From IMG/VR virus record IMGVR_UViG_2698536369_000007, positions 1 through 6,779 of that record: a DNA stretch of 6,779 bases. One strand, written 5' to 3'. A program made the translations under genes and the position numbers. Positions within the stretch are counted from its first letter, which is position 1. The number at the start of each line of letters is the position of its first letter. Shown here in pieces: positions 267 through 6,579 of this stretch. Under the pieces are notes generated by a model. That model had not been told where the DNA came from. It worked only from the letters and a program-made list of their open reading frames with translations, and did not search any database. The stretch is from a virus. Its lineage: Duplodnaviria; Heunggongvirae; Uroviricota; Caudoviricetes.

Positions 267-334
267 GAGACCAGGCGGGGGAGAAATCCCTCGCCACCGC
301 TGATGTGTCAGGCATCCTCAACGCACCCGCACTT

Positions 335-361
335 AACCCGCTTCGGCGGGTTTTGTTTTTT
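335..361 (+). terminator. Rho-independent terminator downstream of hok (5-bp GC stem with UUCG tetraloop, then T-run)
   Basis: ccCGC(337-341) ttcg GCGgg(346-350), flanked by A335-A336 and T351-T352, followed by TTTTgTTTTTT (351-361). Confidence 0.7.
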
Positions 362-3031: not shown

Positions 3032-3107
3032 GGCCCTTTAGCTCAGTGGTGAGAGCGAGCGACTCATAATCGCCAGGCCGCTGGTTCAAATCCAGCAAGG
3101 GCCACCA
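3032..3107 (+). tRNA. ileZ: tRNA, anticodon CAT (Ile2-type that reads AUA after lysidine modification, or Met); ileZ-like phage tRNA
   Basis: 76 nt cloverleaf folded by hand: acceptor GGCCCTT/AAGGGCC, D-arm GCTCAGTGGTGAGAGC, anticodon loop CTCATAA (CAT at 3065-3067), T-arm GCTGG TTCAAAT CCAGC, discriminator A, encoded CCA. Close to my recollection of E. coli ileX. Confidence 0.85.
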
Positions 3108-3114
3108 TCACATA

Positions 3115-3191
3115 CCGCCATTAGCTCATCGGGATAGAACGCCAGCCTTCGAAGCTGGTTTCGCGGGGTTCGAGTCTCCGATGGCGGTCCA
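3115..3191 (+). tRNA. tRNA-Arg, anticodon TCG (reads CGA)
   Basis: 77 nt: acceptor CCGCCAT/ATGGCGG, anticodon stem CCAGC/GCTGG, loop CTTCGAA (TCG at 3149-3151), T-arm CGGGG TTCGAGT CTCCG, encoded CCA. One C:A mismatch in the D-stem. Confidence 0.75.
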
Positions 3192-3204
3192 TTATCGGTA
3201 TTCT

Positions 3205-3281
3205 GCGTTTTTAGCTCAGCCGGACAGAGCAATTGCCTTCTAAGCAATCGGTCACTGGTTCGAACCCAGTACAACGCACCA
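3205..3281 (+). tRNA. tRNA-Arg, anticodon TCT (reads AGA)
   Basis: 77 nt: D-arm GCTCAGCCGGACAGAGC, anticodon stem ATTGC/GCAAT, loop CTTCTAA (TCT at 3239-3241), T-arm ACTGG TTCGAAC CCAGT, encoded CCA. One T:C mismatch in the acceptor stem (3210:3272). Confidence 0.75.
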
Positions 3282-3450
3282 CACTTATTTTCCCTCGCTC
3301 GCTTTTGCGGACCTTTTTTGTATCCGCACCACGCCCGGCGCATACCAACCACAGAGCCTTTCGGGGGGAGCTTATGGAGTGGTCAGTGTGACTTTCTCTG
3401 TGGGCAGATCGCTCCCGGGCGTTGGCTCACCCACCCAAAGGAACGTCACG

Positions 3451-3883
3451 ATGTTTGGTATTTTTGGTAAAAAAAGCCCGCAGAGCGGCAACGGAAATTA
3501 AAAAGTTTGAAAAACGCGATCTGGCACAGGTGGTGATTAACGCCGCATACCTGGTGGCCTGTGCAGATGGTGAATGTGAGGCTTCCTAGAAAGCGAAGAT
3601 CGAACAGGTACTGCGTAATCAGCCTGCGCTGTACGCGTTTACGTCAGAAATTAATGCGATTAGCGCAACCATTATCGGTCAGCTGGATACGAACTTTAAA
3701 ACTGGTCGTCGTGCGGCGTTACGTGAGATCGAGGATGTGAAACACGATACGCGTGAAGCGGAAGATGTGCTGGATGTGGCGGTGGCCATTGCGGAGGCAG
3801 ACGGCGAAATTGAGCCGGAAGAGCGCAAGGTGCTGGAAGAGATTGCCGGTGTTCTGGGTCTTCGTCTGGAGAATTACCTGTGA
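3451..3883 (+). pseudogene. TerB-family (tellurite-resistance TerB-like) gene disrupted by a frameshift in an A7 tract and an in-frame TAG
   Basis: ATG 3451 with AAAGGA SD (3437-3442) gives MFGIFGKK then runs into a TAA at 3499. The +1-shifted frame from the A7 run (3469-3475) reads ARRAATEIKKFEKRDLAQVVINAAYLVACADGECEAS, hits TAG at 3587-3589, then continues KAKIEQVLRNQ...VLDVAVAIAEADGEIEPEERKVLEEIAGVLGLRLENYL to TGA 3881-3883. The two [AV]xxxAxADG...E blocks are the TerB-domain signature. The ORF track shows no intact + ORF here. Confidence 0.6.
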
Positions 3884-4047
3884 CGGTAAAACTGCGCCTG
3901 ACTGTGGCTGCACTCCTGCTGTTTCTGGTGGTGATGGTGGATTTCACCAGCAGAATCATGTCGGTGCTGGCGGATGGGGTGCTGGTCTGCGGCATTATGG
4001 TATTGCTGTGGCCGGTGATAAAAAGAAACAGCCTGCATAATGCTTGA
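3880..4047 (+). CDS. possible small hydrophobic (two-TM) membrane protein, about 55 aa from GTG 3880 (37 aa if ATG 3934)
   Basis: GTG overlaps the TerB stop (GTGA) with GGAG at 3868-3871. Product VTVKLRLTVAALLLFLVVMVDFTSRIMSVLADGVLVCGIMVLLWPVIKRNSLHNA is strongly hydrophobic. Stop TGA 4045-4047. Below the ORF-track size cut-off; no homology recognised. Confidence 0.25.
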   Translation: MTVKLRLTVAALLLFLVVMVDFTSRIMSVLADGVLVCGIMVLLWPVIKRNSLHNA

Positions 4048-4248
4048 TTTTTTTGTTTGCTGTTTATTAAAAACACTTCTGCATGGTGAATCCCCCTGTG
4101 CGGTGGGGCAATCAGCAAGAAGGAATATGGGGTAATCGCGGATTCAGGTGCTGATACTGAATTCACCGGGAGGCACCCGGCACCATGCTTTGCCACAAAA
4201 GTGTTATTTCTGTTTTTCTCAAACTATCATCGTTATCCCTTTATTTTC

Positions 4249-4361: not shown

Positions 4362-6212
4362 ATGTCGATTAAACATTATGATGTTGTCAGGGCGGCGTCG
4401 CCGTCAGACCTTGCGGAAAAGCTGACACACAAACTGAAAGAGGGCTGGCAGCCATACGGCGGACCGGTTGCCATTACGCCGTACACACTGATGCAGGCGG
4501 TGGCTATTGAAGGAGAGCCACAGGTCGGCCCTTCATCTGAGCCGGATTGGTACTACGTCATCGTACTGGCCGGGCAGTCCAATGCTATGGCTTACGGTGA
4601 AGGGCTTCCGCTGCCGGATTCATACGATGCTCCGGATCCGCGCATTAAACAGCTGGCGCGCCGCAGTACAGTGACGCCGGGCGGGGCTGCCTGCAGATAT
4701 AACGATATTATTCCGGCTGACCACTGTCTGCATGATGTGCAGGATATGAGTACGCTGAATCATCCGAGGGCTGACCTGAGCAAAGGGCAGTACGGCTGTG
4801 TCGGCCAGGGTTTACATATTGCCAAAAAACTGCTCCCGTATATCCCGAATAACGCGGGGATCCTGCTGGTACCATGCTGTCGTGGTGGTTCGGCATTTAC
4901 CCAGGGCGCGGAGGGGACATTCAGCGAGTCCACGGGGGCCAGTCAGGATTCGGCACGCTGGGGGGTGGGCAAGCCGTTATATCAGGATCTGATTTCCCGC
5001 ACAAAAGCGGCATTGCAGAAAAATCCCAAAAACGTTCTGCTGGCCGTCTGCTGGATGCAGGGTGAGTTTGACATGAGCGCCGCCACCCACGCACAGCAAC
5101 CTGCGCTGTTTACAGCCATGCTGACACAGTTTCGTGCTGACCTCTCCGTGTTTAACGCGCAGTGCCATGGTGGCAGCGCTGCAGATGTGCCGTGGGTTTG
5201 TGGTGACACGACGTATTACTGGAAAAATACATACGCTACCCAATACGACACCGTGTACGGCGGGTATAAAAACAGGGAGAGTGAGGGCGTTTATTTTGTG
5301 CCCTTCATGACAGACGGTAACGGCGTCAATACCGCCACTAACGCGCCGGCAGAAGATCCGGATATTCCGGCATCAGGATATTACGGTGCGGCATCGAGAA
5401 CGAATGGAAACCAGGTATCATCAAACCGCCCGACACATTTCAGTTCATGGGCGCGCAGGAGCATTATTCCGGATCGTCTGGCAACCGCTATTCTGAACGC
5501 AGCCGGGCGCACCTCAGCCTTCATCAGTGGTAAGGCACCGGAAATCAAACCCTCGCCCGGCGGCAACACGCCATCGGGTCCGTCTGCAGATACGTCCGTT
5601 CGCACAATCTCCCTGCTGCCGGCAGCCGGAGAGGCTGCTGCGCAGGGCTGGAGCATTAAGGATGGCGGAATTCAGTTGTCAGATGGTGTATTTAAGATCA
5701 CCAAGCAGAGCAATAAAACCTGGTCCCTGACGCATCCGGTGGATGACGCAATTACCCTGCTGACACAGGGCGGCAGACTGACCTGTAAGTTCCGCCTGTC
5801 AGGCGCACTGACCAACAATCAGTTCGGGCTGGGGATTTATCTGTATACGGATGCTCCCGTTCCTGATGGTGTGGCGATGACGGGTACCGGTAATCCGTTC
5901 CTGATGTCGTACTTCACTCAGACCACTGACGGCAGAGTGAATCTGATGCATCACAGGAAAGCCGGAAACACGAAGCTGGGGGAGTTCGGCGATTACGGTA
6001 ACGACTGGCAGACGCTGGAGCTGGTGTTCACCGCCGGCAGTGCCACGGTTACTCCGAAACTGAATGGAGTGGCTGGCCCGGCATTCCAGGTTATAAAAGA
6101 CGGTCTGACACTGGGACTGAATGCGCTGACGCTGACGGATGTTACAAAAAATGCAGCGTATGGCGTTGAGATAGAAAGTCTGGTGCTGGAGATAAATGCA
6201 CCGGCAGCATAA
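4362..6212 (+). CDS. nanS: prophage DUF1737 + SGNH/SASA-family esterase (NanS-p-like 9-O-acetyl sialate esterase), 616 aa
   Basis: ATG 4362 with GGAG at 4351-4354. N-terminal MSIKHYDVVRAASPSDLAEKL...GWQPYGG matches the DUF1737 start. VIVLAGQSNAMAYGEG carries the GQSN catalytic-serine motif (nt 4572-4583) of sialate O-acetylesterases. Size and position (after the tRNA trio and cargo slot, before the lysis region) match nanS-p of Stx-type phages. Stops TAA TAA 6210-6215. Confidence 0.8.
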   Translation: MSIKHYDVVRAASPSDLAEKLTHKLKEGWQPYGGPVAITPYTLMQAVAIEGEPQVGPSSEPDWYYVIVLAGQSNAMAYGEGLPLPDSYDAPDPRIKQLARRSTVTPGGAACRYNDIIPADHCLHDVQDMSTLNHPRADLSKGQYGCVGQGLHIAKKLLPYIPNNAGILLVPCCRGGSAFTQGAEGTFSESTGASQDSARWGVGKPLYQDLISRTKAALQKNPKNVLLAVCWMQGEFDMSAATHAQQPALFTAMLTQFRADLSVFNAQCHGGSAADVPWVCGDTTYYWKNTYATQYDTVYGGYKNRESEGVYFVPFMTDGNGVNTATNAPAEDPDIPASGYYGAASRTNGNQVSSNRPTHFSSWARRSIIPDRLATAILNAAGRTSAFISGKAPEIKPSPGGNTPSGPSADTSVRTISLLPAAGEAAAQGWSIKDGGIQLSDGVFKITKQSNKTWSLTHPVDDAITLLTQGGRLTCKFRLSGALTNNQFGLGIYLYTDAPVPDGVAMTGTGNPFLMSYFTQTTDGRVNLMHHRKAGNTKLGEFGDYGNDWQTLELVFTAGSATVTPKLNGVAGPAFQVIKDGLTLGLNALTLTDVTKNAAYGVEIESLVLEINAPAA

Positions 6213-6213
6213 T

Positions 6214-6521
6214 AAAAAAAGAGCCAGCGACTGACCTGAAAGAAGACGCTGGCTAAAAGGCCTTATATGTTTGTAGAGACTTATTTTTCACAGACAGCAA
6301 TGATGCCTGTCAATATATTATCAATATGCGGATTGTTTCAGTTACAGATGCTTTATTAAGGAAAAAAACAGCCAGCACTGACTTTCGGTGGAGAGGTGCT
6401 GGCTCAGAAGGATAGTTGGATTTCACATGATACTTATGCCTGGCGGTATATTTTCTGACAGACAGTGACGGGTGTTGTCAAGATATTGTGTCATTTATAA
6501 CCTGAATCAGGGGAGGCCGGA
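6214..6521. repeat. two diverged tandem repeat units (about 6214-6360 and 6362-6521), each starting with an A7 run and an 8-9 bp inverted repeat (AGCCAGCG/CGCTGGCT; AGCCAGCAC/GTGCTGGCT)
   Basis: Unit 1: A-run 6214-6220, hairpin 6222-6254, then ...TTATTTTTCACAGACAGCAATGATGCCTGTCAATATATT. Unit 2: A-run 6362-6368, hairpin 6370-6404, then ...TATATTTTCTGACAGACAGTGACGGGTGTTGTCAAGATATT. Stems are conserved with a compensatory G:C to A:T change while the loops differ. On the - strand each hairpin is followed by T7, so they look like intrinsic terminators for minus-strand transcription. Confidence 0.55.
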
Positions 6522-6579
6522 ATGTTATCTGGCATTTTTAGCAGAGCCTGAATGCCATAATCACGGCTCCCGGAGTTGG

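Follow-up and report, generated by a model that had tools for sequence, protein, structure and literature searches.

The window, by which we mean the whole analysed stretch of 6,779 nucleotides, carries two hairpins in the spacer between an esterase gene and a holin gene, and these hairpins are the terminators of tandem related small-RNA genes of the published PasA/PasC family (EcOnc51/EcOnc52). The spacer, 448 bp in length, holds two tandem diverged small-RNA units, both of which are encoded on the minus strand and run antisense to the phage late transcript; unit 2 would give rise to an Hfq-dependent RNA of the PasA family, and transcription that reads through its terminator would stop at unit 1. 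We assign a probability of about 0.9 to this reading. The RNA ends, the Hfq dependence and the RNA partners were shown elsewhere on identical or near-identical sequence, and judged by its sequence the copy in the window is presumably expressed as well.

The window comes from a lambdoid E. coli prophage, of which it covers the late-regulatory and lysis end. Its 5′ part contains DUF968 and RusA genes, followed by the antiterminator Q gene (2126-2821) and a trio of tRNA genes (Met-CAT, Arg-TCG and Arg-TCT, 3032-3281). An STnc100-type small RNA (4052-4224, plus strand, 100.8 bits) lies directly 5′ of the esterase gene (4362-6212, plus strand), which by its Pfam matches (SASA, DUF1737, DUF6645) and the annotation of homologues encodes a SASA-family sialic-acid acetylesterase of the nanS-p type. 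The class II holin gene S starts with MEKITT at 6660-6677 (plus strand) and is truncated past codon 6, between ATGGAAAAAATCACAAC and the following G; the inverted end of an IS629/IS1203 element begins at 6678. Since gene S is cut by this element the prophage copy should be lysis-defective. The spacer is 96-99% identical to the Stx1 phages H-19B and YYZ-2008 and to phage 434. The closest phage matches are Stx1 phages, yet the window is stx-negative at the usual site: the stretch 3282-4051, between the tRNA trio and the STnc100/esterase pair, is without an stx operon. Weak matches to isrK/isrJ and leader-peptide models occur at 2830-2914 and 275-356 (both plus strand), below the gathering scores; where they lie next to Q they probably correspond to the short terminated transcript of the late promoter.

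Both repeat units carry a run of seven A residues (6214-6220 in unit 1, 6362-6368 in unit 2; 148 bp apart) followed by an inverted repeat of 8-9 bp, as described in the earlier note. The hairpin of unit 1 (6222-6254, minus strand) has an 8-bp stem (6222-6229/6247-6254; on the DNA AGCCAGCG with CGCTGGCT, also AGCCAGCG/CGCUGGCU), and that of unit 2 (6370-6404, minus strand) a 9-bp stem with fully (100%) complementary arms (6370-6378/6396-6404; on the DNA AGCCAGCAC with GTGCTGGCT, also AGCCAGCAC/GUGCUGGCU). The single compensatory difference noticed before is found at stem pair 8, which is G:C in unit 1 versus A:T in unit 2, and the loops are unlike. Folded as minus-strand RNA the terminator of unit 1 reaches −16.0 kcal/mol (z = −5.8, with 0 of 200 shuffles as good) and the terminator of unit 2 −16.3 kcal/mol (z = −2.8, 4 of 200 shuffles as good). 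The relationship between the units extends beyond the hairpins. Aligned as whole units they score z of approximately 11 with 0 of 2000 dinucleotide shuffles as good, and the alignment still beats the shuffles if the terminators are left out (z 4.1-4.6, 4-6 of 2000 shuffles). They are therefore homologous beyond the hairpins, and the description as a tandem diverged repeat is correct.

In both units a G+C-rich stem is followed by a U-run on the minus strand, and transcript 3′ ends in enteropathogenic E. coli (EPEC) lie there. The outer stems enclose loops of 17 nt, which is long for intrinsic terminators, and inner pairs shorten these loops in the predicted folds. A generic terminator scan, the loop limit of which is shorter than the loops of the outer stems, missed unit 2 and gave only an alternative small hairpin for unit 1. 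A covariance model of the terminator module found units 1 and 2 and nothing else within the window. A plus-strand terminator at 6578-6614, directly before the holin gene and also present in the annotation of phage 434, resembles the 3′ arm of PasA and was considered as a third, inverted copy, but was rejected at 7.7 bits and E = 1.5. An Rfam search of the whole window with E values up to 1 gave no match in 6200-6520, including the AsxR/AgvB families (RF02703, RF02702); the Pas family is absent from Rfam.

The identification of unit 2 builds on the work of Pearl Mizrahi et al (2021, PMC8550237), who combined Hfq RIL-seq with RNA-seq and northern blots and reported five prophage small RNAs in EPEC E2348/69. 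According to their Table S6, PasA is encoded on the minus strand in the gap separating the esterase gene E2348C_0688 from the holin gene and extends from 743499 to 743415 as the major form (85 nt) or to 743264 as a minor form (236 nt), and its level dropped in an hfq deletion under activating conditions (log2FC −2.8). If the E2348/69 locus is aligned to the window, the 5′ end of PasA corresponds to position 6446, the major 3′ end to the last U of the unit-2 U-run (U7, 6362..6368, minus strand), and the minor 3′ end to a position 3 nt beyond the unit-1 U-run. The proposal that both sites are intrinsic terminators on the minus strand thus agrees with mapped transcript ends, and the phage 434 record independently annotates both as minus-strand terminators. 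We accordingly place a PasA-family gene of 85 nt at 6362..6446 (minus strand), its length being taken by homology from the mapped EPEC ends.

Unit 2 lies, like PasA, on the opposite strand between the genes of a SASA esterase and a class II holin. The published PasA northern probe GCCAGCACTGACTTTCGGTGGAGAG matches 6371-6395 in 25 of 25 positions, and the unit 2 RNA is identical to E2348/69 PasA in 74 of 85 positions (87%). The final 45 nt are identical and all 11 substitutions fall within the first 40 nt, so that the homology includes the probe region and the proposed seed GCCAGCACCU (Fig. S5 of PMC8550237), which overlaps the 5′ arm of the unit 2 stem. The unit agrees with the account that Zhu, Shabalina and Storz (2026 preprint) give of the common variant "PasA-2", matched here by description and not by alignment. 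Complementary to the seed is GGUGCUGG (CCAGCACC in the RNA) at 6182..6189 (plus strand) in the 3′ end of the esterase mRNA, and the RIL-seq target motif list has a GGUGCUGG site in both esterase genes of E2348/69 (PMC8550237). In O157:H7 Sakai, the stretch of prophage Sp12 that is identical to unit 2 lies beneath the Hfq peak EcOnc51. Together with EcOnc52 on the Sp4 sequence identical to unit 1, and with the 85-nt Hfq-dependent PasA itself, this bears out the expectation that the locus gives rise to small minus-strand RNAs. The gene order was also reported by Zhu, Shabalina and Storz (2026 preprint), who describe pasA as flanked by the esterase and holin genes, with pasD/STnc100 ahead of the esterase gene, relate STnc100 to PasD and use YYZ-2008 as their reference PasA phage; the order PasD-like/esterase/PasA is reproduced in the window. 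We further note that in the EPEC RIL-seq data a plus-strand fragment (743494-743512) pairs with PasB, another prophage small RNA; it corresponds to 6441-6459 of the window, directly facing the 5′ end and −10 region of PasA on the other strand.

Next to each unit a block is repeated, with CAGACAG at 6291 and 6459, TGTCAA.ATATT at 6308 and 6476, and whole blocks spanning 6291-6319 and 6459-6487. The earlier note had regarded it as a conserved block with promoter-like elements. The block is indeed present twice and is promoter-like, but for the minus strand and not the plus strand: read in reverse complement, TGTCAA gives TTGACA, a perfect −35 element, and the plus-strand alternative (CAGACA-17-TATATT or GATATT) yields 2 sites where 1.1 ± 1.0 are expected, which is chance level. 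On the minus strand both blocks read TTGACA-N15-TGT-hexamer, a pattern made up of a perfect −35, a spacer of 18 nt with the TG motif of an extended −10, and a weak −10. The inferred PasA promoter (6452..6481, minus strand) has its −35 at 6481-6476, then 15 nt, TGT at 6460-6458 and the −10 CAGAAA at 6457-6452; the corresponding block of unit 1 (6284..6313, minus strand) has TTGACA at 6313-6308, 15 nt, TGT at 6292-6290 and the hexamer GAAAAA at 6289-6284. Both hexamers are weak and miss the final T. By RNA-seq, PasA and PasC have their 5′ ends at one and the same C, 6 nt after the hexamer, and in E2348/69 they share identical upstream sequence over 61 nt. From this coincidence of both 5′ ends below the same 61 nt we read the repeated block as the probable promoter of the minus-strand small RNAs. 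A simple σ70 scan of the window called neither minus-strand promoter, and Zhu et al (2026 preprint) report that the PasA 5′ end arises by cleavage of a longer transcript, in which case the promoter would lie further upstream. Given this claim, the result of the scan and the missing final T, we can only infer the promoter assignment.

The following course of transcription is suggested by these data. Transcription of unit 2 would start at approximately 6446, most likely from TTGACA-N15-TGT-CAGAAA, and would end at the 9-bp hairpin with U7 (6404 to 6362). Hfq typically binds a hairpin with a U-run and a U-rich stretch ahead of it (PMC4104026). Both units end in this way, and the unit 2 terminator, with its 9-bp stem, U7 and a U-rich stretch just upstream, forms such a standard 3′ module. 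Polymerases reading through unit 2 would be halted at the hairpin and U7 of unit 1 (6254 to 6214), which would produce the long isoform. Unit 1 retains the same promoter geometry together with a PasC-type terminator and would probably also give rise to an RNA of its own of approximately 65 nt.

Unit 1 (6214..6278, minus strand; its body includes CUCUACAAACAUAUAAGGCC) is a diverged tandem paralogue, for which an RNA of this length is predicted if its own promoter fires. The U7 tail of its terminator (6214..6220, minus strand) begins 2 nt past the esterase stop codon. Unit 1 is used in vivo, as three observations show. The 236-nt isoform of EPEC PasA ends at its terminator, unit 1 being the 3′ part of this isoform; EPEC RIL-seq chimeras, for example with escD, map at 743267-743294(−), which is the unit-1 hairpin, and in all of these chimeras the unit-1 RNA is the small-RNA-like second partner; and the stretch of Sakai Sp4 that is identical to unit 1 lies beneath the Hfq peak EcOnc52. 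In Sp4 an IS629 beside unit 1 removes or displaces unit 2. As identical copies are present in other Sakai prophages, the EcOnc52 reads do not prove independent transcription of unit 1. The 5′ boundary of EcOnc52 is 1 nt from the predicted start of unit 1; this was dropped as start-site evidence, as EcOnc51 shows that CRAC edges differ from transcript ends and offsets between genome versions are possible.

The resemblance of unit 1 to PasC is confined to one part of the RNA. The first 12 nt of the PasC probe are found at 6247-6258, and unit 1 has the PasC stem AGCCAGCG/CGCUGGCU, followed by a U-run that adjoins the esterase stop codon. Homology over the full length of PasC is absent: the match is limited to the terminator and its flanks, and the two are unlike in 5′ body and spacing. 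With this different and shorter body, unit 1 is by its sequence a paralogue and not the orthologue of PasC.

To compare the locus across prophages we scanned IMG/VR with two anchors free of hairpins, the 3′ end of the esterase gene and the block upstream of PasA, which led to approximately 130 loci; the spacing between both anchors defines the architecture of a locus. The two-unit architecture was found in 71 loci, a one-unit architecture of PasC type in 27 loci, and a one-unit PasA-like type with the stem AGCCAGUAC/GUACUGGCU in at least 6 loci. In this last stem pair 7 has switched from C-G to U-A, a clean compensatory change. Some alleles are mosaics; in one two-unit locus, for instance, the PasC loop is found in unit 1. 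The comparison of homologous prophages that had been suggested as a check showed that the stems are kept: only 2 of 215 copies have a broken stem, both of them singleton variants of unit 1, and 4 further copies end before the U-run, at least 2 of them by insertion sequences. Among 15 distinct terminator variants 94% of the stem cells are paired and 3 of 9 pairs have changed on both sides, compared to 23-48% paired cells in controls with the partner slid by 1-3 columns, and none of the column shuffles attains the observed pairing or covariation score. The covariation counts on these 15 variants comprise few independent events, all in the same direction. Selection on the stem, as had been supposed from the two units of the window, is supported by the change at pair 7 together with the switch between G-C and A-U at pair 8.

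Of 5426 complete E. coli genomes 677 contain unit 1 and 692 contain unit 2, mostly as several copies, and approximately 100 copies of unit 1 are located on plasmids as remnants without unit 2. These remnants, on plasmids of 82-95 kb, comprise the last 87 nt of the esterase gene and unit 1, are flanked by IS elements and adjoin a uilS lactonase gene (for example pO26_10153_2, 2490-2650). In 4 IMG/VR loci PasA unit 2 has neither unit 1 nor the esterase gene beside it; at GTTACAGATGC it passes into other upstream sequence, which resembles the late promoter region of the phage 82/21 type. The PasA unit therefore moves as a module. The spacer is also a recurrent target of IS3-family elements, whose ends (TGAACCGCCCCGG...) lie at no fewer than 4 distinct sites: past the esterase stop codon and A-run, after ATATGCGGAT in Sakai Sp4, in the A-run of unit 2, and in gene S as in the window.

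The reading of unit 1 as a gene of its own has to be weighed against the possibility that it is a decayed duplicate whose hairpin acts as a back-up terminator, halting PasA read-through before it enters the esterase gene as antisense, with all signals at unit 1 stemming from the 236-nt isoform. The EPEC authors treated this region as part of PasA, in a minor isoform sharing the 5′ end of the major form, the −10 of unit 1 is weak, and the EcOnc52 reads may be multi-mapped. Set against this, unit 1 keeps the perfect −35, the TG motif and the spacing of unit 2; an Hfq peak was assigned in Sakai Sp4 even though an IS629 immediately precedes the unit-1 promoter block there; and the RIL-seq partners of the unit-1 3′ end, escD among them, are unlike those of PasA. 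A plasmid remnant without unit 2 (93% identical) points in the same direction, as its promoter-like block is unchanged despite 4 changes in the transcribed 5′ body, with 7 of 8 stem pairs kept. The geometry of the promoter-like block is conserved, and the Hfq and RIL-seq signals of unit 1 could stem from read-through. We regard the back-up role as a serious possibility, although we stop short of calling it probable. That unit 1 is transcribed on its own, as a predicted RNA of approximately 65 nt, is the probable reading we draw from its promoter-like block. The more extensive proposal is tentative and falls somewhat short of an even chance: PasA loci would be two-gene arrays, unit 1 an independently transcribed third member of the PasA/PasC group (approximately 65 nt, EcOnc52) with its own seed and targets, and the PasC and one-unit alleles products of unequal recombination.

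The hairpins could instead act on the plus strand, stabilizing or processing the 3′ end of the esterase mRNA or of the late transcript, while the repeated blocks would be promoters directed toward the holin gene. The unit-1 hairpin lies 9 nt past the esterase stop codon, a scan calls a promoter-like site with 9 of 12 matches at 6291-6319 (plus strand), the terminator at 6578-6614 could end such a transcript, and a plus-strand RNA fragment of the spacer is present in RIL-seq. On this strand the hairpins are followed by AAAAGG and CAGAAGG, however, and not by U-runs; the number of promoter-like sites is the one expected by chance; the RIL-seq fragment 743494-743512 lies upstream of any start from such a promoter; and every small RNA mapped here is from the minus strand. 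We therefore consider plus-strand action quite improbable. That the inverted repeats arose by chance, or are generic REP/MITE-like elements without a role at the transcript level, has in its favor their short length only; it is refuted by the published RNA ends, and the folding z-scores, the covariation and a position kept in hundreds of genomes speak against it along with this direct RNA evidence, which leaves it practically negligible. The preferred reading remains that of two minus-strand units with intrinsic terminators.

The most conserved stretch of the spacer is 6490-6620 (plus strand), which contains a G-run of variable length (6513-6519) and a mini-ORF (MLSGIFSRA) at 6523; the G-run, inside a putative ribosome-binding site of this mini-ORF, differs in length among homologues. 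The stretch could be a divergent small RNA of the plus strand or a barrier that shields the holin gene from read-through in the lysogen. A minus-strand ORF of 53 amino acids at 6491-6652 was considered as coding sequence or parent mRNA of PasA and rejected: it is without a Pfam match, and its frame is disrupted in homologues by length changes of the G-run and a 1-nt indel.

Compared to EPEC PasA, unit 2 shares the position, the strand, the terminator, the seed, the 3′ half of 45 nt and the upstream block, and differs by the 11 substitutions in the first 40 nt and by a neighboring holin gene that is broken by IS629. PasC of the E2348/69 prophage PP5 shares with unit 1 the 8-bp stem, the U-run abutting the esterase stop codon and the UUUU before the stem, whereas it has another loop and agrees with unit 2, not unit 1, in its 5′ body and promoter; the PasC loop does occur in one allele of unit 1. 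The PasC locus in PP5 is a single unit, with a PasA-like promoter and 5′ body and a terminator of unit-1 type, where the locus of the window has two units. By its composition PasC looks like a recombinant of unit 2 and unit 1. The peaks EcOnc51 and EcOnc52 of O157:H7 Sakai (Tree et al 2014, PMC4104026) are identical to unit 2 (Sp12) and unit 1 (Sp4), but are orphan Hfq peaks known from CRAC alone, with approximate boundaries. The anti-sRNAs AsxR and AgvB of lambdoid prophages are likewise short, Hfq-bound, located in a moron region, convergent to the late transcript, and composed of conserved 3′ and variable 5′ parts; in contrast to the Pas units they are found beside stx or ahead of the esterase gene, and no sequence or Rfam match connects them to the window. 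OmrA/OmrB and PrrF1/PrrF2 are also adjacent paralogous small-RNA units with their own terminators and read-through between them, with the difference that independent expression of unit 1 of the window is only predicted. A literature search on EcOnc51/52 or PasA-2 returned no further work beyond PMC8550237, PMC4104026 and the 2026 preprint.

The feature itself is already known as PasA/PasC and EcOnc51/52, and its observation and interpretation from the sequence were correct. As a modest addition we propose that PasA loci are two-unit tandem arrays with a diverged paralogue, which interconvert with one-unit loci of the PasC type; unequal recombination between the units seems to have produced the one-unit alleles. 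According to the 2026 preprint (Zhu, Shabalina and Storz), pasA copies are not tandem duplicates; the BLAST filter used there, which required at least 75% coverage, probably missed unit 1. If the two-gene arrays are real, they would contradict the preprint, which gives tandem duplication no part in Pas diversification.

A speculative function follows from the location of both RNAs: as both run antisense to the late transcript a short way ahead of the holin gene, they might damp leaky expression of lysis genes in lysogens. The Pas small RNAs are abundant partners of Hfq in EPEC and EHEC and pair with virulence (bfp, LEE) as well as core transcripts, and for this reason their annotation matters for the regulatory maps of pathogenic E. 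coli; in RefSeq records they are not annotated. A tandem pair that interconverts with one-unit alleles bears on how accessory small RNAs diversify, and unit 1 may be an overlooked regulator, while the general picture is left unchanged by either point.
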